Source: a bacterium | Lineage (GTDB): Bacteria; Patescibacteriota; Minisyncoccia; Phycocordibacterales; UBA5272 | Reading direction: 5' to 3' | Assembly (NCBI GenBank): GCA_027482685.1 | Contig: JAIXVU010000001.1 | Coordinates: 11 to 64,010 of the forward strand | Length of the DNA: 64,000 nucleotides | Position numbers and translations under genes: made by a program | The notes under the pieces: model-generated | Told to the model about the DNA's origin: nothing | What the model saw: only the letters and a program-made list of their open reading frames with translations | Database searches by the model: none | In this document: positions 3,241 to 38,223 of the stretch, piece after piece | How the letters are laid out: every line of letters starts with the position of its first letter | Position numbering within the stretch: the first letter of the stretch is position 1

Positions 3241-3362
3241 TAAAAAAGCATAGCAAATAAAAACCTTCTTATATATACTTGACTGTTATAACGAAATATG
3301 ATATTATTTATTAGGCTCCATCAACGTCCTCGCACTGCTTAATTTCCAAGAAAGGAACAGCA

Positions 3363-7463: not shown

Positions 7464-7590
7464 ATAGTACTAGTGTATAGGTTTTAGGGGATAGGGGCTA
7501 GTAGGTAACAAAAAACCTTGCGTGTCATGAGGCTGAGGGGAAAAGGGAACAAGGGGATTGATTATACTAAAAGTGTCAAGTGTTGCGTAT

Positions 7591-8664: not shown

Positions 8665-8947
8665 CTTGTCGAAAAATCACTGCATCTACTTCTTTGTAAA
8701 GATTTTTTTGCTCCTGTGATGTACAACTTGTACATCTTAGTCTCAAAAAATCTATACGCCTCGTATCTACAGCATTTTTTCAACAAGTGAGTGGGGGATA
8801 AAATGTGTAACTCTTTCGTTACGTTTGTTACTCGCTCGTCAATGTACAAGTAAGTACAACTCCTCGCCCGCTCCTTCCTGATTAAGATTTGCATCATTTT
8901 CTGCTCTCGTTAGAATTTACTACTAACTAGTTTGCTATACTGTTTCA

Positions 8948-9622: not shown

Positions 9623-9663
9623 TGTACAATTTGTCTACTAATAAGGTATTAAATTTTGTATTT

Positions 9664-9693
9664 CCTAACCCCTAATCTCTATACCCTAACTAT
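9664..9693 (+). repeat. CCCTAA leader motif (cctaacccctaatctctataccctaactat) abutting the frr start codon
   Basis: Ends 1 nt before the frr ATG. No SD sequence is present. Confidence 0.55.
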
Positions 9694-20883: not shown

Positions 20884-20910
20884 TCCCTAATCCCTAACCT
20901 CTAGACCCTA
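20884..20910 (+). repeat. CCCTAA leader motif (ccctaatccctaacctctagaccctag)
   Basis: Lies between the terminator and the mraZ promoter. Confidence 0.5.
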
Positions 20911-20957
20911 GTTCTGGATATCCACACTTTTTTCTAGGTATTTAGGTAGAAAGTGGA

Positions 20958-24942: not shown

Positions 24943-26373
24943 ATGGTTAACCCTGTACGTGTACAAAAAATCACCGAAAAAGATTACAGTAATGGCACTG
25001 TTATCTACGAGATGTGTCGCGAGCTACGCGCGCATGATAATGACGCACTGCTTTTCGCTCAGGATCTTGCAAAAAGTAATGGGTGTAAGCTTGTAGTGCA
25101 CTACCGTATCTATAACTATCTTTGGCAAGGTGCAACCGCACGCTTTTACGACTGGGTCATAGCATCTCTTAAAGAAGTTGAAGCAACACTCCGTGTGCAT
25201 GCTATCCCTCTTGTGATTATCTTCGAAGATAACAAGTTGTACGCACGTGATACTAAGATATCTCATATACCTCATGATACTGGCGCAGTAGTGATAGAAG
25301 AGATACCGCTACACTTTGCTCGCAAGTGGAAAGATATCTATCTCGCTCATCACAATACTATTCCACTCTATGAAGTCGATGCGCGTAACTGTATTCCAGT
25401 ATGGGAGTTGTCACATAAGCAGGAATTTGCAGCTCGTACAATCCGCTCAAAAGTACACGCGAAGTTAGGAGGGTACCTAGAAGAATATGACAAACTTACC
25501 ACACATACCGCAAATGCTGATCTGCTCACAAAGATGCAACCGATAGATTGGAATGATATTCGCAAAAAGATTATATGTGATGAATCCGTAGCTGAAGTTG
25601 ATTGGATACATGCAGGTGAGAAGGCCGCTCATAAGCAACTCACTCACTTCCTTTCAGAAAAGTTACAAGAGTATGATGAGTCTCGCAATAGTATCAACAT
25701 TGATGGTCAGAGTAACCTCTCACCATACATATCTCATGGCAATATTTCACGTCGACGTATTGTACTAGAGTTACTTAGGACAACTGGGGTGGAGATTCGT
25801 AGTGCGTTTGATCCAGTACAGAATGGCTCAAACGGGAAGTTGGGTAGTATCGCAGCATTTATCGAAGAGTGCGTAGTGCGAGCAGAACTCTGTGAAAACT
25901 TTTGTTACTACAACCACGCGTATGATAAGGTCACAGGCTTTCCAGCGTGGGCAAAGGAGACGCTTGACGCTCATAAACATGACGCGCGAGAGTATACGTA
26001 TACATATAAGCAATTAGAAAAAGGAGAAACTCACGACAGGTTATGGAACGCTGCACAGTTACAAATGGTGCAGACTGGTAAGATGCATGGGTACATGCGT
26101 ATGTACTGGGCAAAGAAAATACTAGAGTGGACCAAGTCCCCAGAGGATGCTATGAAGTTCGCAGTGAAGCTAAACGATACCTATGAGCTAGATGGACGAG
26201 ACGTTGGCGGGTATGTTGGATGTGCATGGTCAATAGGTGGCGTGCATGATAGGCCGTGGTTCACGCGTCCGATATTCGGTACTATTCGCTACATGGCAGT
26301 AAGTGGCGTTGAGAAACGTGGTAGTATAGAAGAATATATAACGAAGTTCGCTTCTCCTCCAAAACTTGTATGA
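24943..26373 (+). CDS. phr: Deoxyribodipyrimidine photolyase, class II CPD photolyase
   Basis: Class II photolyase C-terminal FAD-binding signature GYMRMYWAKKILEWT...GGYVGCAWSIGGVHDRPW...IRYM. Confidence 0.85.
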   Translation: MVNPVRVQKITEKDYSNGTVIYEMCRELRAHDNDALLFAQDLAKSNGCKLVVHYRIYNYLWQGATARFYDWVIASLKEVEATLRVHAIPLVIIFEDNKLYARDTKISHIPHDTGAVVIEEIPLHFARKWKDIYLAHHNTIPLYEVDARNCIPVWELSHKQEFAARTIRSKVHAKLGGYLEEYDKLTTHTANADLLTKMQPIDWNDIRKKIICDESVAEVDWIHAGEKAAHKQLTHFLSEKLQEYDESRNSINIDGQSNLSPYISHGNISRRRIVLELLRTTGVEIRSAFDPVQNGSNGKLGSIAAFIEECVVRAELCENFCYYNHAYDKVTGFPAWAKETLDAHKHDAREYTYTYKQLEKGETHDRLWNAAQLQMVQTGKMHGYMRMYWAKKILEWTKSPEDAMKFAVKLNDTYELDGRDVGGYVGCAWSIGGVHDRPWFTRPIFGTIRYMAVSGVEKRGSIEEYITKFASPPKLV

Positions 26374-27344
26374 AAAAATCAAACAATAGTTTCCCGAAAA
26401 AAGTAAGTACAAACAAAGCCACGAAACCATTTGCAGATAAAGCACCAAGGACAACAGTCATGAATTATGATTCTCCTCGAAAGATAGACAAAAGATTAAA
26501 CTTTAAAAATCCTGATAGATTAGCTGATATAGAATCTCGTCCGAAGCCGATGAGTAAGAGTAAGCATAAGCCAGTAGTAGATACATCATGGGGAACAGTT
26601 GCATCATGGTACGACAGTCATCTAGAAAAGAGTGATGATACCTATCATGCAAAAGTTATCTTCCCGAATCTTCTACGACTACTTGATGATGTTAAAGGTA
26701 AGAAGATTTTAGACCTTGCATGTGGGCAGGGGGTGTTTACTCGTGAGCTACATAGTAAGGGGGCGCTTGTAACAGGTACAGACATCGCAAAGGAACTCCT
26801 TACAATTGCAGAAGAGAAGGGTAAAGCATCAAAAGTCATCCCTAAGATAACCTACATACGAACAAGTGCAGATGATCTTTATATGTTGAAAGACAACACA
26901 TTTGATATTGTCATCTGTATTCTCGCACTTCAAAACATCGAGAACATGCAAAAGACAGTGAAGGAAGCATCTCGAGTGCTCACAACAGGAGGGCGATTTA
27001 TCTTCGTACTTAATCATCCGTCGTTCCGCAATCCTCGTCAGTCCGCATGGGGCTACGATGAGCATACGAGCATGCAGTACAGACGAGTGGACGAGTACAT
27101 GTCAGAGTCTCATGTGAAGATAGACATGACACCAGGGAGTAAAGCCGACAAGAAGTTCACTGTGTCATTCCACCGACCTCTTCAGGTATATGTAAAAGCA
27201 CTTTCAAAAGCAGGCTTTACTATTACTCACCTTGAAGAGTGGATTAGTCACCGTACAAGTGAAAAGGGGCCGAAGCAGCGCGCGGAGGATAGGGCTAGGA
27301 AAGAGATTCCATTATTCATGTGCCTCGAATCTAAAAAAGTATAA
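26370..27344 (+). CDS. Class I SAM-dependent methyltransferase with basic N-terminal extension
   Basis: ILDLACGQGVFTRELHSKGALVTGTDI (motif I) and DIVICILALQN. Overlaps the photolyase stop (ATGA). Confidence 0.75.
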   Translation: MKKSNNSFPKKVSTNKATKPFADKAPRTTVMNYDSPRKIDKRLNFKNPDRLADIESRPKPMSKSKHKPVVDTSWGTVASWYDSHLEKSDDTYHAKVIFPNLLRLLDDVKGKKILDLACGQGVFTRELHSKGALVTGTDIAKELLTIAEEKGKASKVIPKITYIRTSADDLYMLKDNTFDIVICILALQNIENMQKTVKEASRVLTTGGRFIFVLNHPSFRNPRQSAWGYDEHTSMQYRRVDEYMSESHVKIDMTPGSKADKKFTVSFHRPLQVYVKALSKAGFTITHLEEWISHRTSEKGPKQRAEDRARKEIPLFMCLESKKV

Positions 27345-27384
27345 AACTTCCGTACTTGGCGACCTTTTTTGTAGAAATTTCTAA

Positions 27385-27415
27385 TTCATTCGTCAATGTA
27401 GGTTCACTACACCTC
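27385..27415 (+). repeat. Diverged copy of the 3'-UTR repeat element (tcaatgtaggttcactacacctcctcat)
   Basis: Shares the tgtag-gttNa-ctaca hairpin with the copies at 32557 and 37972. Located 40 nt after the methyltransferase stop. Confidence 0.4.
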
Positions 27416-27578
27416 CTCATGAATTTTCGTTTCCCCTCAAATCTCTTCCAGGTATGAAAGTTTTAGTAATGTGTGGTGAACTTCCTTGAATTTCATCTAA
27501 TTTCTAAACTTTTCAATTCCAGTTTATTTATAATTCTCGCGAAAATAATTCTATGCTACACTAGAAAAATATAAAAAT

Positions 27579-28238
27579 ATGAAAAAGTTATCACATTTCT
27601 TAAAAACACCTCAAGGTAAAATTATTAGCGGAATCGTCGGTATTATCGTGCTTCTCTTTGCATACTATTTTTACGCAATGAGTAAAGTAGAAGCTACCCC
27701 AACATCCACCGAAATAACCATCTCAGAAAAAGACCATGTCCGTGGCAAAGGGGGAGCAAAGGTAACTATTGTTGAGTTCGCAGACTTCCAGTGCCCAGCA
27801 TGTCGCGCGTATGAACCGCTTGTTCGTAAAGTAGTTGAGGATAACAAAGACACAGTACAGCTCGTGTTCCGTAACTTCCCACTTACTCAGATCCACCCTA
27901 ACGCTCTCTTAGCTGCAAAGGCAGCTGAGGCTGCTGGTGTACAAGGTAAGTTCTGGGAGATGCATGATGTGCTCTATGACAAGCAAGATGAATGGTCATC
28001 AGCGCTTAACGCTCGTGACAAGTTCATGGTCTATGCAACGACTCTTGGTCTTGATATGACTAAGTTCGCTCAGGATCTTAACAGTAAGGAGATAGAAGAT
28101 AAGATACGTGCTGAGATGAAGGAAGGCGTAGCTCTCGGGGTGCAAGGCACACCATCATTCTTCGTTAATGGTAAGAAGATAGAGAACCCTCGTTCAGTAG
28201 AAGCATTCGATAAAATTGTAAAAGACGCTGCTGAATAG
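27579..28238 (+). CDS. Thiol:disulfide oxidoreductase, DsbA/BdbD-like thioredoxin fold, membrane anchored
   Basis: N-terminal TM and the CPAC active site in FADFQCPACRAYEP. Confidence 0.8.
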   Translation: MKKLSHFLKTPQGKIISGIVGIIVLLFAYYFYAMSKVEATPTSTEITISEKDHVRGKGGAKVTIVEFADFQCPACRAYEPLVRKVVEDNKDTVQLVFRNFPLTQIHPNALLAAKAAEAAGVQGKFWEMHDVLYDKQDEWSSALNARDKFMVYATTLGLDMTKFAQDLNSKEIEDKIRAEMKEGVALGVQGTPSFFVNGKKIENPRSVEAFDKIVKDAAE

Positions 28239-28243
28239 TTAGC

Positions 28244-28270
28244 GCTAACCCCTAACCTCTAGCCCCTAAC
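28244..28270 (+). repeat. CCCTAA leader motif (ctaacccctaacctctagcccctaaca) abutting the start codon
   Basis: Ends 2 nt before the ATG at 28273. Confidence 0.55.
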
Positions 28271-28272
28271 AT

Positions 28273-28500
28273 ATGATAAAAGAATTCCTCCTCAAACAAG
28301 CAGTCAAACGTGGCGCAAAAGATCTTCCAAAAGAACAACAGGAAATGCTCACCAAAGCGGTAGAACAGAACCCAGAGCTTTTCAGTAAGATTGCAAAAGA
28401 AATCGAAGCCTTGAAGAAATCCGGTAAGCCAGAGATGTACGCAGCACTTGATGTGATGAAGAAGTATCAGAAGGAACTTTCGGTACTTTTTAAGCAGTAA
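28273..28500 (+). CDS. Hypothetical small protein (75 aa, helical, Lys/Glu-rich)
   Basis: Host-like codon usage. Preceded by the leader motif. Confidence 0.45.
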   Translation: MIKEFLLKQAVKRGAKDLPKEQQEMLTKAVEQNPELFSKIAKEIEALKKSGKPEMYAALDVMKKYQKELSVLFKQ

Positions 28501-28503
28501 TTA

Positions 28504-28902
28504 ATGAATCCTAATTTTTCTGGTGCGCCATCTCAAAATATACAAAAACCGACTGACATTGAAAGAGAACCATATCTTGATTTAATAAATGATTTTGGTG
28601 TATTTATTAGCCTTAATGCCGTAGCACTTGATACACAAATTATTCCAGGTAAAGAAAAAGAATTATTGGAATTGCGTCAAGTATTAAGAAAGCCTGTCAT
28701 TAACGGCCAAACATTCACTGAGTTTCTTTCTAATAACCATCAAAGTCTGACGAAACCACAAGTTGCGGAGGCTCTTATTTCACAAATTTACAACTTTTTG
28801 TTGTATATAGAGCCAGGACTATCAATATTCACAACAGATGCTGCTTGGCCTAAAAGATTCAATGTTATTAAAGAAAAGTATAGTAAATTAGTACGTGCAT
28901 AA
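28504..28902 (+). CDS. Hypothetical protein (132 aa)
   Basis: ORF immediately follows 28273..28500. No motif recognised. Confidence 0.45.
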   Translation: MNPNFSGAPSQNIQKPTDIEREPYLDLINDFGVFISLNAVALDTQIIPGKEKELLELRQVLRKPVINGQTFTEFLSNNHQSLTKPQVAEALISQIYNFLLYIEPGLSIFTTDAAWPKRFNVIKEKYSKLVRA

Positions 28903-28981
28903 TTTTGGGATATTTGTGGTTGAGTCTACATATTAAATAGACACTTTAGCAGCAGTCTAACTATTTTCTCTGGTATACTGC

Positions 28982-29713
28982 TTGCATATGGATAGACATC
29001 CCGAAATTATCGAGACGACACCAACGATTGGCAACGTGCAAGAACTCCCTCAGGATGTTCCAACACTTCAGGCTGAGGTATTGCGCCTACGAGAGGAAGT
29101 GAGACGTTTACAAGAAGAGGCACTCACAGATAGTCTCACAGGGTTACCTAACAGACGTTACGCTGACCAAGAGATAAAAACTCTTTTCGCCCAAAGAGGG
29201 AGAAATGAGATAGACTCATTCAGTGTTATTGCATTTGATCTAGATGGTTTCAAGGCGATCAATGACAAAGGTGGACACCTCGCAGGGGATGAATGTCTCA
29301 AGATTGTCGCAGAGGAGATCCGGAATACATTACGAACTACCGACTTCTTCGCACGCGAAGGAGGGGATGAGTTTCTTATTTTCCTACGTAACGAGCCACA
29401 TGCAACAACAGTTGCTGAGAATGTGCTCAAGAGAATGAATGACAACGTAACCACAAGGTTACGCGAGTATACAAAGGACGAAACGTCCTGGATATCAGCA
29501 AGTATTGGTCTTGTAACGATAGCAGATGATAGTAGCTTGCGAGGTATCACATCATCAAAGGATGTGCTTACTCAGGCAGACTATGTGAGGTATGTGGTAA
29601 AGGCAGCTGGTAAAAAAGGAGTCTTCACCCTCGAGCAAGCCCGCGAGGTAGACACAGACGGCAGATACTGGAAGCAATTTGTGGAGAATAAAATAGGGAA
29701 GGTCTCAGTGTAA
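28982..29713 (+). CDS. Diguanylate cyclase (GGDEF domain) with N-terminal coiled coil
   Basis: LTGLPNRRY, DLDGFKAINDKGGHLAGDECL and the canonical active site REGGDEFL. Confidence 0.85.
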   Translation: MHMDRHPEIIETTPTIGNVQELPQDVPTLQAEVLRLREEVRRLQEEALTDSLTGLPNRRYADQEIKTLFAQRGRNEIDSFSVIAFDLDGFKAINDKGGHLAGDECLKIVAEEIRNTLRTTDFFAREGGDEFLIFLRNEPHATTVAENVLKRMNDNVTTRLREYTKDETSWISASIGLVTIADDSSLRGITSSKDVLTQADYVRYVVKAAGKKGVFTLEQAREVDTDGRYWKQFVENKIGKVSV

Positions 29714-29810
29714 GTACTATTTAGCAAAAGTGGTTTAAATAGATGTCTATTTTATCTCAACAAAGTTGCAATGTAGTTTGCTGGTAAATATCATTGGATA
29801 AAAAAGAACA

Positions 29811-29840
29811 CACCCCGAACAGCGTCGGGGGTGGGGTGGA
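29811..29840. terminator. GC-rich hairpin (ccccgaac-agcg-tcgggg core) between convergent genes
   Basis: Located between the GGDEF stop and the 3' end of the 29856 ORF. Confidence 0.45.
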
Positions 29841-29855
29841 CCTTGGTGCGATGTG

Positions 29856-30198
29856 TCAGTCATCACTTAGGATATGAAATGAGTGACATGACCTCGCGAT
29901 GAAGGGGATCTCACCCTTTAGTTGTGCGAGCTTACTCTCGGCAACATCGCGTTGCTTGTAGCAGGCGACAACCTGAAGTTCGCCTCGTAGCATCGCAGTT
30001 ACAATAGCGCACTCGAGATCTCGCATCGTGATATCGAGTATCCTCGCAACACGCTCAGCGTGTATGGTGAGGAAGATTATCCTTTCATTTCTGAAGCAAC
30101 GACATACAAAGAGTGCTATACGGACTTCAGGTGGCTCTTTTTGTTGTTCTCTGATATCTGAGGCGGGCCTATGCACCTTATCTGGAGTAGCATACATC
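29856..30198 (-). CDS. Hypothetical protein (about 114 aa), GC-rich with SD
   Basis: ATG chosen at MYATPDK, preceded by GGGAGAAG; the longer ORF starts on TTG. Transcribed divergently from the RhuM-Fic gene. Confidence 0.45.
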
Positions 30199-30309
30199 AG
30201 ATCTTCTCCCGTAATGTAATGAGCAATGCACAAATACTACAACGATTATTGCCCCATCGTCAACTATAGCGGGCAAGGGTATTATTACTTTATCCACAAA
30301 ATATTGAGG

Positions 30310-30338
30310 TTGTTCTATTGATGTAGAACACTTGTTCT
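30310..30338. promoter_or_regulatory. Palindromic operator candidate TGTTCTA-N5-TAGAACActtGTTCTA (GAAC-N4-GTTC, Cheo-box-like)
   Basis: GTAGAACACTTGTTCTAC is a perfect 8+8 inverted repeat 15 nt upstream of the RhuM-Fic ATG. The core matches the Gram-positive LexA box GAAC-N4-GTTC. Confidence 0.5.
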
Positions 30339-30352
30339 ACTAGACTATATAT

Positions 30353-31369
30353 ATGGCAAAGAAAAAACAAACATCAAAAACAACTACAATTTTTAATAAC
30401 AACGTCATTGTCTATCAGACAAAGTCAGGAGCACTCGAGCTAAAGGGTGATTATACAGGTGAGACAGTGTGGGCAACACAGGCGCAGATAGCAGAGGTGT
30501 TTGGTATAGAACGATCCGTTATAACTAAGCACATTAGAAATATTTATAAAGAAGATGAATTAAATGAGAAAGCAACATGTGCAAAAATTGCACAAGTTCA
30601 AATTGAAGGAAAACGTAGAGTTGAACGTGAAGTAGAGCACTATAATCTTGATCTTATTATTTCCGTTGGTTATCGAGTTAATTCAAAGACAGCCACCTCC
30701 TTTCGTCAGTGGGCGACAAGGACGCTTCGTGAACATTTAACTAAAGGGTATACACTGAATAAGAAAGTTATCCTCGAGAACTACGATCAATTTATTAAAA
30801 ATGTGTCCGAAATACAAGCGCTACTTCCGGAGCATGTGACGCTTGACCCAAAGGGAATACTTGATCTAGTAAAAGAATATGCAACAACATGGTCCAAGCT
30901 TGATGCGTATGATAAAGATGAGCTCACCTCAGAAGGTGTCACAAAGAAGAAAATTAAAATTAATGCAGATGAGCTTTCTACTACTGTAGAAACATTCAAA
31001 ACAGAACTTATAAAAAAAGGTGAAGCTACAGAAATTTTCGCACAAGAACGAGCCTCTGGAAATCTAGAAGGTATATTAGGGAATGTGATGCAGTCATTTG
31101 GTGGTTCTGATGTGTATAAGACACTGGAAGAAAAGGCGGCACACCTTCTCTATTTTATGGTGAAGAATCATCCATTTGTAGATGGGAATAAACGCTCAGG
31201 AGCTTTTACTTTTATCTGGTTCTTGAGAAAATCAGGAGTTCGTGGAGCTAAGAACATCAATCCATCCGGACTGACCGCTATTACACTTCTCATTGCAGAA
31301 AGTGACCCAAAGCATAAAGAAAAGGTAGTTGCCCTTGTTGTAGAACTTCTCAAAACAAAAGTGAAATAA
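30353..31369 (+). CDS. RhuM-family N-terminal domain fused to Fic/Doc (death-on-curing-like) domain
   Basis: RhuM signature VWATQAQIAEVFGIERSVITKHIRNIY...YNLDLIISVGYRVNSKTATSFRQWATRTLREH. C-terminal Doc-type motif HPFVDGNKRSGAF. Confidence 0.75.
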   Translation: MAKKKQTSKTTTIFNNNVIVYQTKSGALELKGDYTGETVWATQAQIAEVFGIERSVITKHIRNIYKEDELNEKATCAKIAQVQIEGKRRVEREVEHYNLDLIISVGYRVNSKTATSFRQWATRTLREHLTKGYTLNKKVILENYDQFIKNVSEIQALLPEHVTLDPKGILDLVKEYATTWSKLDAYDKDELTSEGVTKKKIKINADELSTTVETFKTELIKKGEATEIFAQERASGNLEGILGNVMQSFGGSDVYKTLEEKAAHLLYFMVKNHPFVDGNKRSGAFTFIWFLRKSGVRGAKNINPSGLTAITLLIAESDPKHKEKVVALVVELLKTKVK

Positions 31370-31419
31370 TATCTCGTCTATGTTAGAATGCAATGCATTA
31401 AGTATTTATCTAATTAACC

Positions 31420-31454
31420 AGCCCCTAGTCCCTAAACCCTAACCTCTAGCCCTT
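31420..31454 (+). repeat. CCCTAA leader motif (gcccctagtccctaaaccctaacctctagccctt) abutting ychF start
   Basis: Ends at the nucleotide before the ychF ATG. Confidence 0.55.
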
Positions 31455-32552
31455 ATGTCTCTCTCTATCGGAATCGTCGGCCTACCAAATGTTGGTAAGT
31501 CAACACTATTCAATGCTATCACCAAGAAATCTGTTCCAGCAGATAACTATCCGTTCTGTACCATTGATCCATCAGTAGGTATCGTTCCTGTACCAGATGC
31601 ACGTCTAGAAGTCCTCTCAAAAATTTCTAGTTCAAAGAAGATAATCCCAGCTATCGTTGAGTTCGTCGATATTGCAGGACTAGTAAAAGGTGCAAGTGAA
31701 GGGCAAGGACTAGGCAACCAATTCCTCTCACATATTCGTGAGACAGATGCAATTGCTGAGGTGGTACGTATCTATGAGAACGGTGACCTCATCCACGTAG
31801 AAGGGACAGTTGACCCGCTTCGTGATATCGAGATCATCAATATGGAGCTCATACTAGCTGATATGTCTACGGTTGAGAAGCGTATACAGACTATCGGTCG
31901 TGATGTAAAGCGTGGGGATAAGGATGCTATAAAACTAGACGAGCTACTCAAGCGTCTGAAGAGTCACCTAGAAGAAGAAAAACTCGCCAACAGACTATCG
32001 CTTGATGAAGAAGAGAAGCGACTCGTGAAAGAACTTCATTTGATCACGATGAAACCTTTTCTCTATGTACTCAACAAGCAATCAGGTGGCAAGAACCTAG
32101 ATGAAATGGGGGACGATAGATTTACCAAGCTAATAGCGTATTTCAAAGAGCATAACTTCCAGTATGTGGTGGTAGATGCCAAGATAGAAGATGAGCTCAA
32201 AGAGTTTGAAGGCGAGGAGAAGGAAATGATGCGTGCTGAGCTCGGCGCGCATGATAATGGAGTAGATGGACTTATCAAAGCCGGATATGATCTTTTAGGC
32301 CTTGAGACATACCTCACCACAGGGGAGATGGAGACACGTGCATGGACTGTAAAAAAGGGGAGTACCGCACCAGTAGCAGCTAGTGCGATACACACGGACT
32401 TCGAGCAGAAGTTTATACGCGCAGAAGTTGTTGCGTATGATGACCTTGTGAAGGCAGGAGGCTTCGCGGAAGCAAAGTCACAAGGTGTACTACGGACAGA
32501 AGGGAAGGAGTATATTGTTCACGACGGTGACGTCATCGAATTTAAGATATAA
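31455..32552 (+). CDS. ychF: Ribosome-binding ATPase YchF (Obg-family GTPase fold)
   Basis: GIVGLPNVGKSTLFNAIT P-loop, DIAGLVKGASEGQGLGNQFL and the C-terminal TGS domain. Confidence 0.92.
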   Translation: MSLSIGIVGLPNVGKSTLFNAITKKSVPADNYPFCTIDPSVGIVPVPDARLEVLSKISSSKKIIPAIVEFVDIAGLVKGASEGQGLGNQFLSHIRETDAIAEVVRIYENGDLIHVEGTVDPLRDIEIINMELILADMSTVEKRIQTIGRDVKRGDKDAIKLDELLKRLKSHLEEEKLANRLSLDEEEKRLVKELHLITMKPFLYVLNKQSGGKNLDEMGDDRFTKLIAYFKEHNFQYVVVDAKIEDELKEFEGEEKEMMRAELGAHDNGVDGLIKAGYDLLGLETYLTTGEMETRAWTVKKGSTAPVAASAIHTDFEQKFIRAEVVAYDDLVKAGGFAEAKSQGVLRTEGKEYIVHDGDVIEFKI

Positions 32553-32556
32553 ATTA

Positions 32557-32665
32557 CCCCATCTACTTTGTCGCTACGAAATTTTCCTCAGTCATCGTAG
32601 GTCTACTACGACTCTTTCAAAAATTTCTAAGCTTCGCATATCTGAGGCAATTTCTATCTTAAATC
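32557..32665 (+). repeat. 3'-UTR repeat element copy A (catctactttgtcgctacgaaattttcctcagtcatcgtaggtctactacg...tctgaggcaattt)
   Basis: Starts 5 nt after the ychF stop. About 75% identical over about 105 nt to the element after alaS. Contains the hairpin cgtag-gtcta-ctacg. Confidence 0.6.
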
Positions 32666-32714
32666 TGCATAGAATCTATAATAATTTTTGAATTTTGAAG
32701 TATAATATATACAT

Positions 32715-32769
32715 CACCTCATCTACTTTGTCGCTACGAAATTTTCCTCAGTCATCGTAGGCCTACTAT
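32715..32769 (+). repeat. 3'-UTR repeat element copy B (partial direct duplicate of copy A)
   Basis: cacctcatctactttgtcgctacgaaattttcctcagtcatcgtaggcctacta is 52/53 identical to the 5' half of copy A, 160 nt downstream. Confidence 0.6.
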
Positions 32770-32853
32770 CAATGATATATACAGATATGGTATTATGTGG
32801 TATAGTGTGAAGCGAAACAGTTCTGTTTTACCCACTACCATGGAGGTTATGCA

Positions 32854-33159
32854 ATGGAAAATTCAACCGAAGAGTCCAATGTCCATGCAGGAAACGTTGA
32901 CAAGACACCTGCATTTCTCGCATATGAGTTTGCCGTCAAGCTCGTACAAGAACATGGGTTCCCAACGACTGACCCGCTCGTTGCTTACCTCTACGCAGAT
33001 GAGATGATGACGAGCTTGGTAGCGTTCAAGGACCTCTGTGTGGTCTTGGAATTTGCGGAGGGTCTTCCTAAAACAATTCCAGACCTGTTTCATATCAAGC
33101 ATCTTGAGAAGATGAAGCAGGCACTCGAAGATAAACAATCCAATAAAAAATCCTCATGA
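32854..33159 (+). CDS. Hypothetical protein (101 aa), GC-rich with strong SD
   Basis: GGAGGT lies 6 nt before the ATG. About 47% GC. Private terminator. Lies just after the duplicated repeat element. Confidence 0.5.
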   Translation: MENSTEESNVHAGNVDKTPAFLAYEFAVKLVQEHGFPTTDPLVAYLYADEMMTSLVAFKDLCVVLEFAEGLPKTIPDLFHIKHLEKMKQALEDKQSNKKSS

Positions 33160-33169
33160 GGGTTGTTGG

Positions 33170-33197
33170 GCCACGCGGTACTCCGCGCGGCTTTTTC
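33170..33197 (+). terminator. Terminator gccacgcgg-tact-ccgcgcggc plus T-run
   Basis: GC hairpin followed by ttttt. Confidence 0.7.
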
Positions 33198-33268
33198 TTA
33201 TGGGTTTTTTATTGCTTAATAAATGAAATAAAAATCTATTTGAATTGTAGTATTATGAGTAGAACAAT

Positions 33269-33841
33269 ATGACTGAAGAACAAGCAACTTTGACAGATGA
33301 AGATATTGCAATCTGCGTATGTAATGGAGATAAAGATTTGTATGGAGTTCTCATTGATAGGTATGAATCAAAATTAACACGCTATGTTAAACGATTCACA
33401 CAACATGAGGAAGATGTCCTTGATATCATACAAACTATTTTTATAAAAGCATATATACATCTACAGAGTTTTGACAGTAAGCGATCTTTTAATAGCTGGA
33501 TATATCGTATTGCGCATAATGAAAGTGTGAATTATCTGAAGAAGCGAGGGGGAGAGAAAATTTCATTTATTGATTTTGATACATTTCTTCCATATTTATT
33601 CGCGCAAGAAGAGTCTGACAAGCTAGCTCTTGATGACGAGACTAAACGTCTCATGGATGCAAGTTTACAAAAAATACCACCAAAGTATCGAGAAGTATTG
33701 GTGCTTTTCTTTTATGAAGAATTATCATATCAAGAAATTGCAGATGTGCTCCATATACCGATTTCAACCGTTGGGGTACGTATTAAACGAGGAAAAGATG
33801 CATTAGAAAAAACTTTAACAGCTAATCACTATCAATCATGA
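33269..33841 (+). CDS. ECF-type RNA polymerase sigma factor (sigma-70 region 2 and region 4)
   Basis: Region 2 (IIQTIFIKAYIHLQSFDSKRSFNSWIYRIAHNESVNYLKK) and region 4 HTH (LSYQEIADVLHIPISTVGVRIKRGKDAL). Confidence 0.85.
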   Translation: MTEEQATLTDEDIAICVCNGDKDLYGVLIDRYESKLTRYVKRFTQHEEDVLDIIQTIFIKAYIHLQSFDSKRSFNSWIYRIAHNESVNYLKKRGGEKISFIDFDTFLPYLFAQEESDKLALDDETKRLMDASLQKIPPKYREVLVLFFYEELSYQEIADVLHIPISTVGVRIKRGKDALEKTLTANHYQS

Positions 33842-34638
33842 CAATCAAAAATAATATTTTAGATACACTTCATACTAAGAACCTAAAGATGATACCTAGG
33901 TGGCAATTCATCGTGTATTCTATTTTGGTAGTACTTGGCCTGGTCTTTATTTTTTTGGTTACGGTATTTTTCTTTAGCTTGATGCTCTTTGTACTTTCGC
34001 GTTACGGGTACATGTATATGCCATTCTTTGGTTTTATGGCAACCTTGAAGGCATTATCTGCGATCCCACTTCTTCTCTTTGGAGCTACAATTATCCTTCT
34101 TGTTTTAATTGAGGTTATTTCTCGCAAATATACTATTTCTTTTAAGAGACCACTTATTGTTACTCTTTTATCAACCACTTCATTTGTGGTAATAGTTAGT
34201 TTTATCATCAGCGAGACATCAATGCATGACTATATTCATACATATGCCAAGTCTCGTCGTATTGATATCATGTCACGTGCATATGACAGGCCAATACCGT
34301 TTAAGCTAAAGGATGATATGACAGTAGTTCGAGGGGAGGTAGTTGCAACGACAAGCACAAGTACTTCTATCAGGCTTTTTGATGGAGTTATCCTTACCGC
34401 GTATGCGAGTACTTCACTCATGGATAGATTCATTCAGCCGGAAATCGGAAAAGATATCATACTCTTGGGGACATTCCTAGGTGATCGTATTGAAATACTT
34501 GATATTCGTGCGGCACCTCGCGCGACATTTGGTAGACATATGGGTGGCGGGAAGCATATGCACGATGGAGTCAGGGGTAGTATGTCAAATGATATCGGTA
34601 TGCCGATAATTCGAGTTCAAACTGGGGTAGATAAATAG
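33838..34638 (+). CDS. Membrane protein, putative anti-sigma factor
   Basis: Translationally coupled to the sigma factor (ATGA overlap). Multi-TM N-terminal half plus a C-terminal soluble domain. Confidence 0.5.
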   Translation: MTIKNNILDTLHTKNLKMIPRWQFIVYSILVVLGLVFIFLVTVFFFSLMLFVLSRYGYMYMPFFGFMATLKALSAIPLLLFGATIILLVLIEVISRKYTISFKRPLIVTLLSTTSFVVIVSFIISETSMHDYIHTYAKSRRIDIMSRAYDRPIPFKLKDDMTVVRGEVVATTSTSTSIRLFDGVILTAYASTSLMDRFIQPEIGKDIILLGTFLGDRIEILDIRAAPRATFGRHMGGGKHMHDGVRGSMSNDIGMPIIRVQTGVDK

Positions 34639-34836
34639 AATTATTTTAATGTTTTGCCAGCTTGAAAATGATAATTGACTATTTTTAAGCCGGTTAACTA
34701 GATTTAATCTAGAGGTGAAATAAAATATCTACACATCATGTAGTACATAGTGAGAGGGGGAAGGTATATCCTATGAACTAATTTTTCCTCTCCAGTCATA
34801 CATTTGACTATTACTACAAATAACTATCGTATAATC

Positions 34837-35295
34837 ATGAAATCTACAATAAAAAAAGCATCACTCTTAGGAGCGCTAGGTATGGCAGTAGCAGGCGTTG
34901 CAACTGCTTCTGCTATGGGGTTCGGTGGTTTTGGTGGCGGAATGATGAGCACTCTTACAACGGATGAAATTGCGACACGTCAGACAACTATGTTTCAAAA
35001 ACAAGCAGAGCTTATCGGCGCAACTACTGATGAAATCAAGAACGCTTGGGCTGATGGAACAGACTTTCTTACTTTTGCTAAATCAAAAGGGGTAACCGAG
35101 GAAGCTCTCAAGGTCAAATTGCAAGCTGTTCGTGTTGCAGAGTTAAAGACACAGCTAGATATGCTCGTTAGTAAAGGTGTCATCACCCAAGCACAGGCAG
35201 ACAAGCGATTAGCCACCATGCAAACCAAAATGACAAATAAGAAATCATTTGGTATGGGTCGTGGTCATCACGGGATGATGGGCGGATTATTTTAG
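34837..35295 (+). CDS. Secreted Gly/Met/His-rich protein (putative periplasmic metal-binding)
   Basis: Signal peptide MKSTIKKASLLGALGMAVAGVATASA. GFGGFGGGMM and GMGRGHHGMMGGLF Met/His clusters resemble Cu-binding motifs. The ORF track starts 11 codons earlier. Confidence 0.5.
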   Translation: MKSTIKKASLLGALGMAVAGVATASAMGFGGFGGGMMSTLTTDEIATRQTTMFQKQAELIGATTDEIKNAWADGTDFLTFAKSKGVTEEALKVKLQAVRVAELKTQLDMLVSKGVITQAQADKRLATMQTKMTNKKSFGMGRGHHGMMGGLF

Positions 35296-35370
35296 TGCAC
35301 ATCTCTTGCGAATGTAAGGGATGTATAAAAACAATAGTTGTTCTTTAATAAAAGTATAATTATATATTGC

Positions 35371-35404
35371 AAAACAGGCGCCCTAAATGGAGGCGCCTGT
35401 TTTG
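35371..35404 (+). terminator. Terminator aaaacaggcgcc-ctaaatgg-aggcgcctgtttt
   Basis: 12-bp stem plus T-run after the secreted-protein gene. Confidence 0.7.
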
Positions 35405-35552
35405 TTTTTTAGAGAAGTGAAACATCCTTATAGCTTGCCCTGAGTTTGTAAAAGGAAGGTGGGGGATAGTTTGCCGAGTAGACAAAGCACGGTATCAATT
35501 TTTGCAAATTAATTTTTAAACATGTAGAGTATCCCATAGATCCACGTAGGTC

Positions 35553-35885
35553 GTGGAAGGAGAAATGGTGATGAGCGATATCAATCGAGAGTTCGATACA
35601 ACTGTTGAACTTGTGAGGGCAGCTGAGATTGAGCTAATCCAACATATTGGAGAAGTAAACGCCAGAAAACATGAGCTACTCTCCTACAAATTTCTCAAGT
35701 TCAACAGTGAGAAAGAGTATGCCTGGCAGGCGTTATTGCGTAGGTTCTCAAGAAACCCAGAGCAAAAAGGAAACGTGCAAGGTGTCGAAGAGCTCACCTT
35801 TGCACTTCGTGCGTACCTTGCGGCACTAGAAGCAGAACTAGAAAAGCCGCTAGAAGTACAGCAAAAGCAAAGTACTGCAAGCTAG
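35553..35885 (+). CDS. Hypothetical protein (110 aa), GC-rich with strong SD
   Basis: GGAAGGAGAA directly precedes the ATG. No known motif. Confidence 0.5.
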   Translation: MEGEMVMSDINREFDTTVELVRAAEIELIQHIGEVNARKHELLSYKFLKFNSEKEYAWQALLRRFSRNPEQKGNVQGVEELTFALRAYLAALEAELEKPLEVQQKQSTAS

Positions 35886-35931
35886 GGTGTATCTGATGTT
35901 GCTACTTCATCTTCAGATTTTTGAAAGGGTC

Positions 35932-35960
35932 AAGCGCGCCGTAGGCGCGCTTTCTTTTTA
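35932..35960 (+). terminator. Terminator aagcgcgcc-GTAG-gcgcgctt plus T-run
   Basis: GTAG-loop hairpin family member. Confidence 0.7.
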
Positions 35961-36073
35961 TACATACTGCAACGCTAGAATCTCATCACCATCTTTGCTA
36001 TAATCAAACTACTAATTTTGTATTTAGAATTGTATCTGTATCAACTAGACCTAACCTTTACCTACCTAGTACT

Positions 36074-37966
36074 ATGTCACTCACCGTAAATCAAATTCGC
36101 ACCAAATTCCTAAAATATATGGAAAGTAAAGGCCATGTTGTTGTTCCATCAGCGTCTCTTGTTCCTGAGAACGACGCAACAACACTTTTCACTGGTTCTG
36201 GTATGCAACCGATGGTGCCGTATCTCCTGGGACAGCCACATCCGCTTGGTGTTCGTATCACAGACTCACAAAAGTCATTCCGTTCACAAGATATCGAGGA
36301 GGTGGGAGACAATCGCCACACAACATTTTTTGAGATGTTAGGCAACTGGTCATTCGGTGATTATTTTAAAGAAGAACAAATTAGGTGGATGTGGGAGTTC
36401 CTCATTGATGAGCTTAAACTTGATCCTAATAACTTTTATATCACGTGTTTTGCAGGTAATGAGTCACTTGGCGTCAAGCGAGATACGTTCTCTGCAGAAT
36501 TATGGCAGAAGCTTTTTGCGCAGAAGGGTATTGATGCAAAAGTGAGCGATACACCAGAGAGTGGAATGAAAGATGGCGAGAAGATTTTCTACTACAATGA
36601 AAAGAAAAACTGGTGGTCACGTAGTGGAGTACCTGCTAACATGCCAGAGGGAGAACCTGGCGGACCAGATAGTGAGATGTTCTATGATTTTGATGCAACT
36701 GGTCAACAAAAGATTCACGAAACGAGTGCATGGAAGGATGTGCCGTGCCATGTGAACTGTGACTGTGGGAGATTCCTTGAGATAGGGAATAATGTATTCA
36801 TGCAATACAAGAAAGTTGCTGGAGGGTTTGAAGAACTACCACAGATGAATGTGGATCATGGGTCGGGGCTTGAGCGTTACGCAGCGGCACTACGTAATGA
36901 TCCAGATGTTTTCAATATCGACGTGTTTGATGAACCGAAGAAGATGATTGAGCGTTTGAGCGGAAAAGTATATGGTGAGTCAACAGAGGTAACCTACGCA
37001 TATCGTGTTGTGCTCGACCACATTCGTGCGGCAGTATTTCTTATTGGTGATGGAGTGTTGCCAGGGAACAAGGATCAGATGTACTTTGTACGTAGACTTC
37101 TTCGTCGCGCGGTACGATTTGCTCGTAACTTGGGCGTGCATGATAATTTTACTCGAGAAGTTGGAGCTTCTTTTATTCAAACATATAAGGTAGAGTACAC
37201 GCTGCTTGAAGAAAAGAGACAGGTGATTTTAGATGAACTCGAAAAAGAAGAGATGAAGTTCCGCAAGACTCTTGAGAATGGAATAAAAGAGTTCGAGAAA
37301 ATAGCAGATAAGAATATTAGTGGAGTAGATGCATTTAACCTCCTTCAGTCATTTGGGTTCCCAATCGAGCTTACAGAAGAGTTAGCAAAAGAACGTAATA
37401 TTACAGTTGATAGAGTATCCTTTGATGAAGAAAAGAAAAAACATAGTGAAGAATCTCGTACAGCAAGCGCTGGGAAGTTCAAAGGAGGACTAGGAGGGGA
37501 CGGTGAGATGGAGGTTAAGTATCATACCGCAACGCATTTGCTTCATGAGGTACTTCGCCAAGTGCTCGGTGATCATGTACTGCAGAAGGGAAGTAACATT
37601 ACATCAGAGCGATTACGATTCGACTTCTCTCACGGCGAGAAGATGACTGATGAGCAGAAGAAGCAAGTAGAAGATATTGTGAACAAAGTCATTGCAGATG
37701 ATTTACCTGTTCACCGCGAAGAAGTGAGTTATGATGAAGCTCGTGCACGAGGGGCAATAGGAGTGTTTGATGCAAAGTATGGCGATACGGTATCTATCTA
37801 TACCGTAGGTCGTGAGACTGGTACACGTGGTGGAGCGAATCTCTTCTCACTTGAATTCTGTGGTGGTCCGCATGTAGAGCACACAGGAGTACTCGGAACC
37901 TTCAAGATTACAAAAGAGGAGGCGGTATCAGCCGGTGTTCGCCGGATCAAAGCAATTTTATCCTAA
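36074..37966 (+). CDS. alaS: Alanyl-tRNA synthetase, C-terminally short form (630 aa)
   Basis: AlaRS catalytic N-terminus (FTGSGMQPMVPYLLG, WSFGDYFK). Editing-domain metal site HTATHLL...H and CGGPHVEHTG. Lacks the C-terminal C-Ala/DHHA1 region. Confidence 0.88.
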   Translation: MSLTVNQIRTKFLKYMESKGHVVVPSASLVPENDATTLFTGSGMQPMVPYLLGQPHPLGVRITDSQKSFRSQDIEEVGDNRHTTFFEMLGNWSFGDYFKEEQIRWMWEFLIDELKLDPNNFYITCFAGNESLGVKRDTFSAELWQKLFAQKGIDAKVSDTPESGMKDGEKIFYYNEKKNWWSRSGVPANMPEGEPGGPDSEMFYDFDATGQQKIHETSAWKDVPCHVNCDCGRFLEIGNNVFMQYKKVAGGFEELPQMNVDHGSGLERYAAALRNDPDVFNIDVFDEPKKMIERLSGKVYGESTEVTYAYRVVLDHIRAAVFLIGDGVLPGNKDQMYFVRRLLRRAVRFARNLGVHDNFTREVGASFIQTYKVEYTLLEEKRQVILDELEKEEMKFRKTLENGIKEFEKIADKNISGVDAFNLLQSFGFPIELTEELAKERNITVDRVSFDEEKKKHSEESRTASAGKFKGGLGGDGEMEVKYHTATHLLHEVLRQVLGDHVLQKGSNITSERLRFDFSHGEKMTDEQKKQVEDIVNKVIADDLPVHREEVSYDEARARGAIGVFDAKYGDTVSIYTVGRETGTRGGANLFSLEFCGGPHVEHTGVLGTFKITKEEAVSAGVRRIKAILS

Positions 37967-37971
37967 AATTA

Positions 37972-38072
37972 CTTCATCTACTTTGTCGTTACAAAACTTT
38001 TTCAGTTCAATGTAGGTTTACTACATCTCATTAAAAAAGTTTCTAGACTCCTCGTATCTAAGGCAATTTTAA
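37972..38072 (+). repeat. 3'-UTR repeat element copy C (after alaS)
   Basis: catctactttgtcgttacaaaactttttcagttcaatgtaggtttactacatctc...tatctaaggcaatttt. Hairpin tgtag-gttta-ctaca carries compensatory changes relative to copy A. Confidence 0.6.
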
Positions 38073-38098
38073 GACAAAATAATTCTTGAATAAAAAGA

Positions 38099-38127
38099 AA
38101 AACCGCCGAGAAACTCGGCGGCGGTTT
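38099..38127. terminator. Hairpin aaaccgccgag-aaa-ctcggcggcggttt
   Basis: GC stem with flanking A/T runs, 3' of the minus-strand gene 38224..38523. Confidence 0.5.
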
Positions 38128-38223
38128 GAGCAATAAGTGCTCATGATAGTTGAGGTGTCGTGACGACATCGTAGATACGAAGTAAAACGTACAAGAAAAT
38201 CGTCAAAGGAAACAGAAGGACCA

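Follow-up and report, generated by a model that had tools for sequence, protein, structure and literature searches.

A palindromic repeat behind stop codons, probably a non-autonomous DNA transposon, with relatives in many bacterial phyla

The repeat that follows ychF, alaS and a methyltransferase gene is probably a non-autonomous DNA transposon (MITE) of about 125-135 bp that belongs to a large family in many bacterial phyla. A covariance model identified four full copies, each about 125 nt, and two fragments within the window, the term used here for the whole 64-kb stretch of DNA that was analyzed, which derives from a Patescibacteria (CPR) genome. All four full copies start at a stop codon, those of mreB, the methyltransferase gene, ychF and alaS. 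The copies are listed below, with the parts of copy A as read on the plus strand.

8661-8791, minus strand: copy E, full, after the mreB homologue (stop TAA 8662-8664); 94.5 bits, E 1.1e-23
8664-8682 and 8770-8788 (outer arms), 8683-8696 (box1), about 8718-8736 (hairpin GATGTAC-aactt-GTACATC): parts of copy E
8796-8903, minus strand: fragment F, degenerate, immediately after copy E; covariance model 16.5 bits, E 0.11
8843-8858: hairpin TGTAC-aagtaa-GTACA of fragment F, from a hairpin scan
27339-27468, minus strand: copy D, degenerate but full-length, after the methyltransferase gene (26370-27344); 57.0 bits, E 4.1e-13
27397-27411: hairpin TGTAG-gttca-CTACA of copy D
32538-32666, minus strand: copy A, full element after ychF; covariance model 101.9 bits, E 8.5e-26
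32540-32559, pairing with 32645-32664: outer stem arms of copy A
32560-32573: box1 of copy A, CATCTACTTTGTCG
32594-32613: hairpin of copy A, ATCGTAG-gtcta-CTACGACT
32634-32644: box2 of copy A, TCGCATATCTG
32703-32768, minus strand: fragment B, 92% identical to 32543-32608, with an exact 42-nt match
37953-38082, minus strand: copy C, after alaS; covariance model 98.0 bits, E 1.1e-24
37975-37988 (box1), 38011-38025 (hairpin), 38050-38060 (box2): parts of copy C

The initial annotation had placed copies A (32557-32665) and C (37972-38072) at stop codons, which was confirmed (ychF TAA 32550-32552; alaS TAA 37964-37966), but their identity is 79% over 96 nt rather than about 75% over about 105. The partial duplicate that it described behind copy A is present as fragment B, which matches copy A over its 5' half on the plus-strand reading, from the outer arm through box1 and the inner-stem arm to the first hairpin arm, and diverges beyond that point; its covariance-model score is only 9.9 bits. 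The supposed diverged copy at 27385-27415 does contain repeat sequence, but it is really the core of the full-length copy D. Copy E, with its hairpin TGTAC-aactt-GTACA, and fragment F had been missed. An insertion event had been drawn from copies flanking the ORF at 32854-33159; this was a misreading of coordinates, as both copies lie upstream of that ORF. In the relative L123, the ORF after ychF is unrelated to it.

The outer stem of copy A takes in the last ychF codons and the stop codon. Copy C proper spans 37966-38069 and is flanked by TA at 37964-37965, with which the alaS stop codon begins, and TA at 38070-38071; a separate bidirectional terminator-like hairpin follows at about 38098-38128. 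Copy D proper (27344-27463) lies between TA at 27342-27343, within the stop TAA, and TA at 27464-27465, and shares the flank tcgtcaaTGTA..ACAnctcctc with fragment F. In a relative of the Paceibacterota (L014), whose mreB DNA is 79% identical, a copy likewise lies directly 3' of mreB.

The element is a long imperfect palindrome, or hairpin, with an outer stem, two conserved boxes, an inner stem and a terminal hairpin, and has no ORF inside and no coding capacity. The outer stem, P1, consists of the terminal inverted repeats and is 15-20 bp long, with a median of 19 when pairs are extended. Read along the upstream gene's coding strand, the two asymmetric boxes are nnCTTYGTYG (often CATCTACTTYGTYG) and CCTCGTATCTG; the search pattern itself imposed part of the box1 invariance seen in the first set, and unbiased copies retain only CTTYGTYG. 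The inner stem, P2, is variable in sequence, and the terminal hairpin has the form RNCGTAS-loop-STACGNCT. The hairpins CGTAG-gtcta-CTACG, TGTAG-gttta-CTACA and TGTAG-gttca-CTACA, from which a compensatory change had been proposed, were all found, and window shuffles gave an expectation of 0 chance matches to the pattern. The compensatory change is genuine and persists over 85 diverse copies. In these, 87% of the cells were paired as compared with 64% in shuffles, none of 500 shuffles reached 87%, the covariation score was 0.606 vs. 0.197 in shuffles, and helices 1-2 were 77-95% paired. When the partners were slid by 1-3 columns as a control, pairing fell to 32-43%. Compensatory changes occur in 26 of the 37 predicted pairs, and both P2 and P3 covary.

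The fold is strand-specific. Relative to the upstream gene, the G·U pairs are on the antisense strand and not on the mRNA strand; the antisense strand folds about 20 kcal/mol better, and RNAalifold gave -31.7 for the antisense strand vs. -11.8 for the other. Window copies folded about 13-21 kcal/mol better on the minus strand, with z-scores of -7 to -9; the minimum free energies of the RNA (minus vs. plus strand) were -49.6 vs. -28.7 for copy A, -41.5 vs. -20.7 for copy C and -45.3 vs. -32.7 kcal/mol for copy E, with a smaller gap for copy D (-34.1 vs. -30.6 kcal/mol). The mRNA-sense RNA also folded better than shuffles (z-scores -3.5 to -5.8). G·T wobble counts by strand were 290 vs. 72 overall, 118 vs. 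11 in inner P1 and 78 vs. 2 in P3, whereas P2 had no such bias (37 vs. 34). The wobble positions are kept across phyla (columns 19-117, 57-76 and 58-75). The antisense strand carries purine-rich internal loops, a tandem G·A and then a GAG/AAR loop, while the mRNA strand has A·C mismatches and pyrimidine loops. The G·T bias is equal in every genomic context, suggesting that a single-stranded form of that one strand matters.

The wider copy search carried the family far beyond the window, and the pairing signal was kept with more copies. Among the matches listed, a degenerate pattern was found at more than 117 loci in at least about 77 species-representative genomes of at least ten phyla, against a chance expectation of about 3 matches, which we estimated ourselves from the pattern's information content. 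In the same loci, the covariance model identified about 30 more copies that the pattern had missed. The family occurs in CPR bacteria, Bdellovibrionota, Desulfobacterota, Rokubacteria, Acidobacteria, Chloroflexota, Bacteroidota and others. One Bdellovibrionales MAG has at least 20 copies, and nested and tandem partial copies are present in a Bdellovibrionales genome. The recurrent neighbors of the copies are all housekeeping genes. An IS110-family element was found inserted precisely within one copy (locus L115).

Comparison of relatives indicated that the element has moved. The initial annotation had listed a MITE-like element among its options, and this one was upheld by the dispersal in multiple copies, the terminal inverted repeats, the 2-bp target duplications and the site differences between relatives. 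In relatives whose YchF is 88-90% identical, copies are elsewhere or absent. The empty site gaccgtTAACG (L121) corresponds to the filled site gaccgtTA[GTCAG...CTGAC]TAACG (L123), a duplication of TA, and the empty site TGACAaggg (L150) to TGACA[AAAACTTGCG...GCAAGTTTTT]CAtgggg (L122), a duplication of CA. These two are the only clean empty and filled pairs, and many older copies have no recognizable TA..TA. Logan contigs with an identical ychF break off inside copy A.

The position of the element relative to genes is highly constrained. In about 70% of copies a co-oriented gene has its stop codon exactly at the box1 end, and an ORF of at least 90 aa ends no more than 35 nt upstream of box1 in 79 of 121 pattern copies. 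An independent set found by the model only had a stop at the box1 side in 25 of 36 copies and at the box2 side in 3 of 36. The orientation ratio is about 8:1 to 13:1. The adjacent stops were TAA 35, TAG 23 and TGA 3 times, vs. 297, 155 and 137 in the background, so that TGA is depleted (Fisher p = 4e-4); the stop immediately before the L122 copy is nevertheless a TGA, a codon that contains no TA. Insertion left the C-termini of YchF and FtsI unaltered. In several CPR genomes, copies are carried by secY, gyrB, greA, ssb, mreB, ftsI and lysS. The +,+ arrangement of neighboring genes was found in 45 contexts, and in most copies the antisense strand opposes both neighbors.

If the element is a MITE, a TA-duplicating DDE transposase of the IS630/Tc1-mariner type would act on it in trans. 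Insertion would occur into the TA of a stop codon, and the first base of the element (A or G) would restore the stop; we propose that this is why housekeeping genes survive the insertion. The element would then be co-transcribed within the 3' UTR as a moderately stable hairpin, while the opposite orientation would place a far more stable, RNase III-like hairpin on the mRNA, and the orientation bias may be due to selection against the latter. A search of 1.2 Mb of loci yielded neither an autonomous version nor a transposase whose element has matching ends, so mobilization of the IS630 type can only be inferred; a recurrent transposase was also not found among the genes next to the copies. A cut-and-paste DDE transposon is expected to have no orientation preference and has no need of inner stems, so the orientation ratio and the covariation of P2 and P3 argue against a simple MITE. 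Selection alone hardly explains why 70% of copies lie exactly at a stop codon. It is conceivable, although we consider it unlikely, that the strand-specific fold is the active part, as structured RNA or ssDNA read by a widely shared factor, and steers one-orientation insertion onto stop codons.

The possibility was also considered that the functional unit is a structured RNA or ssDNA corresponding to the antisense strand of the upstream gene, that a widely conserved factor binds it, and that its spread is driven by or dependent on the folded strand. It could then serve a recombinase or reverse transcriptase as guide or substrate, or regulate 3' ends in antisense. The antisense fold energies, the context-independent wobble bias and the covariation of P2 and P3, neither of which a transposase would need, are consistent with this idea. 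However, the strand is antisense to both neighbors in most copies with no conserved promoter identified, at copy C the terminator-like hairpin separates the element from the convergent gene on that strand, Rfam gave no match, P2 lacks the wobble bias, and target duplications with terminal inverted repeats are hallmarks of DNA transposition; this explanation is distinctly improbable. A cis-acting mRNA module of the 3' UTR (terminator, stabilizer or RNase-processing site) kept for expression of the upstream gene, or a source of 3'-UTR-derived sRNA, is very improbable. The co-orientation of copies with the gene whose stop codon they start at, the better-than-shuffled fold of the mRNA sense and the recurrence at the same genes in several CPR genomes are in its favor, as is the finding that RNase III acts on Correia hairpins in Neisseria (review PMC10969869). 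However, the element is dispensable, since close relatives lack it after ychF, alaS or ftsI with nothing in its place, the mRNA strand is the less structured one, and the degenerate copies and fragments B, D and F indicate decay, not maintenance. The RNA options of the initial annotation (an sRNA, a non-canonical terminator or an RNase-processing module) received no support in the form given: there was no Rfam match and no hairpin with a U tract, and the wobble pairs and the much lower energy are on the antisense strand.

A substrate for site-specific single-strand recombination or transposition (integron attC-like, REP/REPIN-RAYT or IS200/IS605-type), rather than a DDE-type MITE, would account for the strand-specific folding. 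Like this element, attC sites lie directly after ORFs and fold on the bottom strand, and IS110 and IS1111 elements insert precisely in REP and attC sites, as the insertion in the L115 copy does here. However, no integrase, RAYT or Y1 transposase recurs near the copies, and the duplicated dinucleotide matches the local target (TA or CA), which fits staggered cuts better than duplication-free insertion; we give this possibility very little credence. attC sites are defined by R''/R' core sites (RYYYAAC ... GTTRRRY) in cassette arrays beside an integrase, and attC was rejected because the core sites are absent from the consensus, there are no cassette arrays and the copies follow scattered housekeeping genes. 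An intrinsic terminator, which would be a short G+C-rich hairpin with a U tract directly behind it on the mRNA strand, was also rejected, the hairpin here being about 125 nt long and A+T-rich, with no U run after its 3' arm.

A search of Rfam 15 was negative for the window at the gathering threshold, for eight strong-copy loci at E <= 1 and for copy A at E <= 10, and no description of the element family was found in the searchable literature. MITEs are normally lineage-specific, with the ends as the conserved part, and a structured internal core kept over many phyla is rare conservation for a MITE. The one-orientation siting at stop codons is not explained by known transposition chemistry and offers a testable case of targeting, or of very strong selection, at the gene ends of streamlined genomes. 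If the strand-specific fold directs insertion, this would be a novel mechanism by which mobile DNA is targeted to gene ends. In practical terms, the element breaks short-read assemblies of CPR genomes, as at ychF, and many essential genes have a long hairpin in their 3' UTR as a result of it. Lying there in one preferred orientation, the element may also affect the mRNA.

The MITEs of the IS630/Tc1-mariner type (RUP of pneumococcus, Stowaway-type) have in common with this family the 2-bp TA duplication, short terminal inverted repeats, a length of about 100-150 bp and a tendency to cluster and to insert into each other. The 'Delta' subfamily has the ends TA-(A/G)CAGG(C/T)TGCTGAAAAAGG, which we take to recall those of Tc1 (CAGTGCTGGCCAAAAAG), as a lead only. 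In contrast to those MITEs, the 1.2 Mb of loci searched here yielded no partner transposase, the parts kept between phyla are the internal sequence and structure and not the termini, and the strong orientation and stop-codon specificity is unexpected for that chemistry. The ERIC/IRU elements of enterobacteria are also intergenic imperfect palindromes, of about 127 bp, which are co-transcribed with their neighbors and have reported orientation-dependent mRNA effects in Yersinia (review PMC10969869). However, the covariance model gave 4 bits on an E. coli ERIC copy, which is no match, and the short similarities GAAGTATGACG and CAGGAAGGCGAC are at differing element positions.

Among known systems, the Correia elements (CREE, nemis) of Neisseria are the closest. 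To our knowledge, they are known only from Neisseria, and how they are mobilized has been unknown since 1988. Both are non-coding and palindromic, and the CREE, at about 105-155 bp, likewise has terminal inverted repeats of about 20-26 bp, an A/T run beside an asymmetric core whose two ends differ, and a central GTAC-5 nt-GTAC hairpin. The CREE target duplication is TA, occasionally CA, with an undetermined mobilizing mechanism (PMC2649163), and the present family also duplicates TA and sometimes CA with no known mobilizing enzyme. The end sequences used for comparison were taken from PMC5039591 and PMC9778887. The blocks CAG(G/AT)ACAAGGCG and GGCAACG..GTA..CTG recur in similar form and in the same order in both, and by our own reading of the sequences the U·G wobble is on the same relative strand. 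The core similarity is orientation-specific, with a top-10 mean score of 35.7 vs. 26.6 ± 2.4 in shuffles, above all 300. A covariance model built without CREEs aligned them end to end with exact termini at 24 bits (E ~1e-3), where plain hairpins reach 20-22 bits; a sequence-only nhmmer profile gave no significant match between the two. However, the 26-bp repeat TATAGTGGATTAA(C/A)... of Correia elements occurs in none of the window copies and in none of the 112 parsed ones, an ORF stop was found at 2 of 24 CREE ends (a small sample from Neisseria prophage contigs) vs. about 70% here, and the present family extends over at least ten phyla. Homology with the Correia elements is therefore probable at best. 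If they are distant kin and the fold does direct insertion, the family would provide a clue to the mechanism that moves Correia elements, and if the link holds, it would supply hundreds of diverse relatives in which the mobilizing enzyme could be sought through co-occurrence.

The covariance model of the element (R1) was run across the entire window with filters off and gave four significant full-length copies, identical in orientation. These copies and the two partial or decayed ones are as follows.

8661-8791: copy E, newly found, directly 3' of an mreB homologue, 94.5 bits
8796-8903: fragment F, partial or decayed
27339-27468: copy D, 57 bits (E 4e-13)
32538-32666: copy A, 3' of ychF, 101.9 bits
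32703-32768: fragment B, partial or decayed
37953-38082: copy C, 3' of alaS, 98.0 bits

Copies A and C had been placed at 32557-32665 and 37972-38072 by the initial annotation; both are present, with a measured identity of 79% over 96 nt in place of the estimated 75% over about 105 nt. As had been noticed, both start at the stop codon of an upstream ORF, encoding YchF (31455-32552) and a 630-aa AlaRS (36074-37966), respectively, for which the Pfam assignments were taken from identical or syntenic contigs. The partial duplicate, B, matches the first 66 nt of A with 92% identity. The 30 nt regarded as a diverged copy are real, but they are actually the core of the whole degenerate element D, which begins on the methyltransferase stop codon. 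The suggestion that A and B flank the ORF at 32854-33159 was wrong, as both are located upstream of it. A scan for YGTAS-N4-7-STACR hairpins gave five sites, all on a single strand (8720, 8843, 27397, 32596 and 38011).

The window also contains two mreB paralogues about 5.8 kb apart (7673-8664 and 13507 onward), which are 70-75% identical in DNA over the reported stretches, and the element follows only the first. A family of perfect hairpins of about 50 nt (277-327, 2275-2325 and 9001-9038) has a stem AGATAC..AGAAAG..GCGCC, a loop CCGTAGG or CCGTGGG and then TTTCT. These hairpins look like intrinsic terminators; they score 15-19 bits with the element model, for which the outer stem alone is responsible. 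In addition, a C-rich 27-nt motif of CCCTAA-like units (CCCTAACCCCTAACCTCTAGCCCCTAA) lies directly 5' of the ATG of several genes, including ychF, that have no Shine-Dalgarno sequence (9663-9689, 28243-28269, 31423-31449 and 20885-20911 on the plus strand; 7470-7496 and 2250-2276 on the minus strand). Its role may be that of a leader or translation-initiation signal specific to the lineage.

The anatomy of the element was derived from 112 distinct parsed copies and an alignment of 85 diverse copies (A2). Overall it is a long imperfect hairpin with the following parts.

P1: outer stem of 15-20 bp, formed by both element ends
box1: CATCTACTTYGTYG in the first (pattern) set, as read on the upstream gene's coding strand
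P2: inner stem, variable
P3: the hairpin originally noticed, RNCGTAS, a 4-6 nt loop and STACGNCT
box2: CCTCGTATCTG and variants, followed by the other arm of P1

The outer arm of copy A (32540-32559) holds the last ychF codons and the stop, and its partner arm is at 32645-32664. The compensatory change first seen in the hairpin was borne out across the 85 copies, in which RNAalifold predicted 37 pairs and compensatory changes occurred at 26 of them. The proportion of paired cells was 87%, as against 64% in column shuffles, a level reached by none of 500 shuffles, and the covariation score was 0.606 compared with 0.197. When the partners were slid by 1-3 columns, just 32-43% of the cells paired. 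The search pattern itself forced CATCTACTT and GTA/TAC to be invariant in the first set; in copies found by the model only, just CTTYGTYG of box1 is kept. The conservation and pairing of box2, P1 and P2 are real because these parts were absent from the pattern. An attenuator-like alternative hairpin in copy A (CTACG/CGTAG/CTACG) was also considered and dropped, as the alignment puts the first CTACG in P2.

The strand that folds is not the mRNA strand. The P1 and P3 mismatches on the strand of the upstream gene are overwhelmingly A·C, which are G·U on the complementary strand. There are 290 G·T pairs in A2 on the complementary strand and 72 on the other, with 118 vs. 11 in inner P1, 78 vs. 2 in P3 and no bias in P2. 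The consensus folding energy was -31.7 for the complementary strand vs. -11.8, and the intact window copies behaved similarly (minus vs. plus strand, in kcal/mol: A, -49.6 vs. -28.7; C, -41.5 vs. -20.7; E, -45.3 vs. -32.7). The internal loops on the better-folding strand are purine-rich and were read as tandem G·A followed by GAG opposite AAR. The possibility was considered that the wobble bias is mutational, arising when the coding or lagging-template strand is exposed and deaminated, but established replication and transcription biases would predict the opposite strand. Selection on the mRNA after insertion was likewise rejected, because the bias is 0.11 per pair in all contexts, whether the copy is at a stop, reversed near a stop or elsewhere. 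This uniformity indicates a property of the element and no local adaptation.

The degenerate pattern used for database searches spanned box1 and P3, and by our own estimate from its information content about 3 chance hits would be expected in 596 Gb. The matches listed comprise more than 117 loci from at least about 77 species-representative genomes. Among them, the carriers are Patescibacteria of many classes, Bdellovibrionota (among them Bdellovibrio sp. HCB209, whose genome is complete, and a MAG carrying at least 20 copies), Desulfobacterota and other 'Deltaproteobacteria', Rokubacteria/Methylomirabilota, Glassbacteria, Gemmatimonadales, Acidobacteria, Chloroflexota, one Flavobacteriaceae MAG and one Firmicutes MAG. 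Within these same loci, R1 added about 30 copies. The window is itself part of a Patescibacteria genome: its nearest DNA matches are Paceibacterota and Saccharibacteria MAGs, and the few YchF relatives with a source name are labeled as Parcubacteria, Paceibacterota/Pacebacteria or Gracilibacteria. The element was not found in a plasmid collection by distant BLAST, and no copy was found in viral contigs.

Genomes with a YchF 88-90% identical to that of the window carry copies elsewhere or none. One such contig, L123, has copies 3' of ftsI, 3' of a 75-aa ORF and at two other positions; L122 carries one 3' of ychF; and L121, L126, L149 and L150 are without a full copy. Two clean pairs of empty and filled sites were obtained. 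At the ftsI site, the empty L121 reads gaccgtTAACGttg and the filled L123 reads gaccgtTA[GTCAGAAATTGTTT...AAACAATTTCTGAC]TAACGgaa. At the ychF site, the empty L150 reads aggatcTGACAagggtagcc and the filled L122 reads aggatcTGACA[AAAACTTGCGTGCTTGG...CCAAGCATGCAAGTTTTT]CAtggggcaacc. Both insertions have perfect terminal inverted repeats and duplicate 2 bp of the local target, TA in the former and CA in the latter. Window copies C and D are also flanked by TA..TA, the left TA belonging to the stop codon as its first two bases. Partial copies often occur in tandem or nested, as in A with B and E with F in the window, and Logan assemblies of the same organism break within copy A. Differing sites, target duplications, inverted repeats and nesting are properties of a MITE, a non-autonomous DNA transposon. 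Members of the IS630/Tc1-mariner superfamily characteristically duplicate a 2-bp TA, and the mobilizing transposase may be of that type. No element with matching ends 0.2-6 kb apart was found in the loci, where this search yielded solely an IS110-family insertion within one copy, and no transposase was a recurrent neighbor of the copies, the recurring neighbors being housekeeping families only. Automated calling of target duplications by palindrome extension was uninformative, since the self-complementary TA becomes part of the stem. The contigs L123-L125, from the same strain, are identical, with no insertion polymorphism visible. A copy 3' of ychF in L148 (11210-11370) was set aside because it ends after P3, where G+C-rich sequence that differs from the remainder of the contig takes over, probably through chimeric joining in the assembly at the repeat.

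In a Rokubacteria MAG (L115, CAVYTA010000006.1, 1341-2640), a gene for a transposase of about 330 aa (MEQIIVGIDIAKKRLD...), which we take from its N-terminal motif to be of the IS110 family, lies within one element copy, exactly between the P3 3' arm (CTACGCCT) and the inner stem. Another mobile element has thus used the repeat as its target, in the way that IS110/IS1111 elements use REP and attC sites. Several relatives have the final 14-20 nt of ychF, stop codon included, repeated in inverted form a few tens of nt 3' (L121 11085-11140, L150 11078-11135, L126 11080-11115 and window 32540-32664). The repeat in L121 is a perfect 26-bp stem round a mini-hairpin (gggcaacc-aaa-ggttgctccc), and in the window a stem of this type makes up the outer extremity of copy A. 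Such repeats could have grown as palindromes through template switching or could be the footprint of an excision.

The copies show a strong preference for stop codons, in one orientation. Of the 121 copies in the pattern set, 79 follow an ORF that lies on the box1 strand, is at least 90 aa long and stops 2-32 nt short of box1 (mode 16-20 nt), a position that corresponds to the outer edge of P1. Among 36 independent model-only copies, a stop was located at the box1 edge in 25 and at the box2 edge in 3, all three being short ORFs ending in TGA. The adjacent stops were TAA 35, TAG 23 and TGA 3, as against 297, 155 and 137 for other ORFs of the same loci, a depletion of TGA (Fisher p = 4e-4). The host genes are ordinary housekeeping genes such as groEL, secY, gyrB, greA, ssb, tuf, lysS, ftsI and mreB. 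The proteins are not truncated: YchF ends in ...EF(K/R)(I/V) in 120/120 relatives and FtsI in ...PPDR with and without the element. In a Paceibacterota MAG (L033), two full copies stand back to back on opposite strands with 12 nt between them (3258-3386, minus; 3399-3528, plus), the box1 end of each facing a different convergent gene, an arrangement that agrees with the rule at both gene ends.

The element may insert into the TA of a TAA or TAG stop, and its first base, A or G, would then rebuild the stop and make the insertion harmless. Stop rebuilding leaves the one-sided orientation unaccounted for, because the ends are symmetrical, and also the L122 copy, which lies directly after a TGA. 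In the reverse orientation, the mRNA would carry a far more stable, nearly continuous helix that could be counter-selected, which would be in keeping with existing knowledge on Correia RNA and RNase III (PMC10969869). A strand-aware mechanism that targets gene ends, in place of selection, might also produce the orientation bias.

The feature put forward as a 3'-UTR RNA motif is real, but it is read here as a MITE. It represents a new MITE family, Correia-like and very widespread, with a covarying structured core, a fold on the antisense strand and a one-orientation stop-codon rule. The MITE reading leaves unexplained what keeps the inner stems and the wobble pairs of one strand.

Rfam gave no matching family at gathering or permissive thresholds, a literature search with the box sequences returned unrelated primers only, and such a family is not mentioned in MITE reviews or in a MITE survey of 183,232 genomes. 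ERIC elements were rejected as relatives, as R1 gave no match to them. Among described elements, the nearest are the Correia repeat enclosed elements (CREE) of Neisseria, whose mobilizing mechanism has 'not been determined' (PMC2649163). They resemble the element in size, in an A/T run adjoining a directional core, in a central GTAC-5 nt-GTAC hairpin and in insertion at TA, sometimes CA. Real CREEs from Neisseria prophage contigs were used for comparison. R1, although built without CREEs, aligned them end to end with exact termini in one orientation at 24 bits (E about 1e-3), while plain hairpins score 20-22 bits. In global alignment of the CREE core with the family, the top-10 measure was above all 300 shuffles, whereas the core in the opposite orientation scored under the shuffle mean; a sequence-only profile gave no match between CREEs and the element. 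The element differs in that the defining 26-bp Correia repeat is missing from it and in that, in a small sample, an ORF stop was found at just 2 of 24 CREE ends. It is probably a distant relative that works like a Correia element and not a member of that family.
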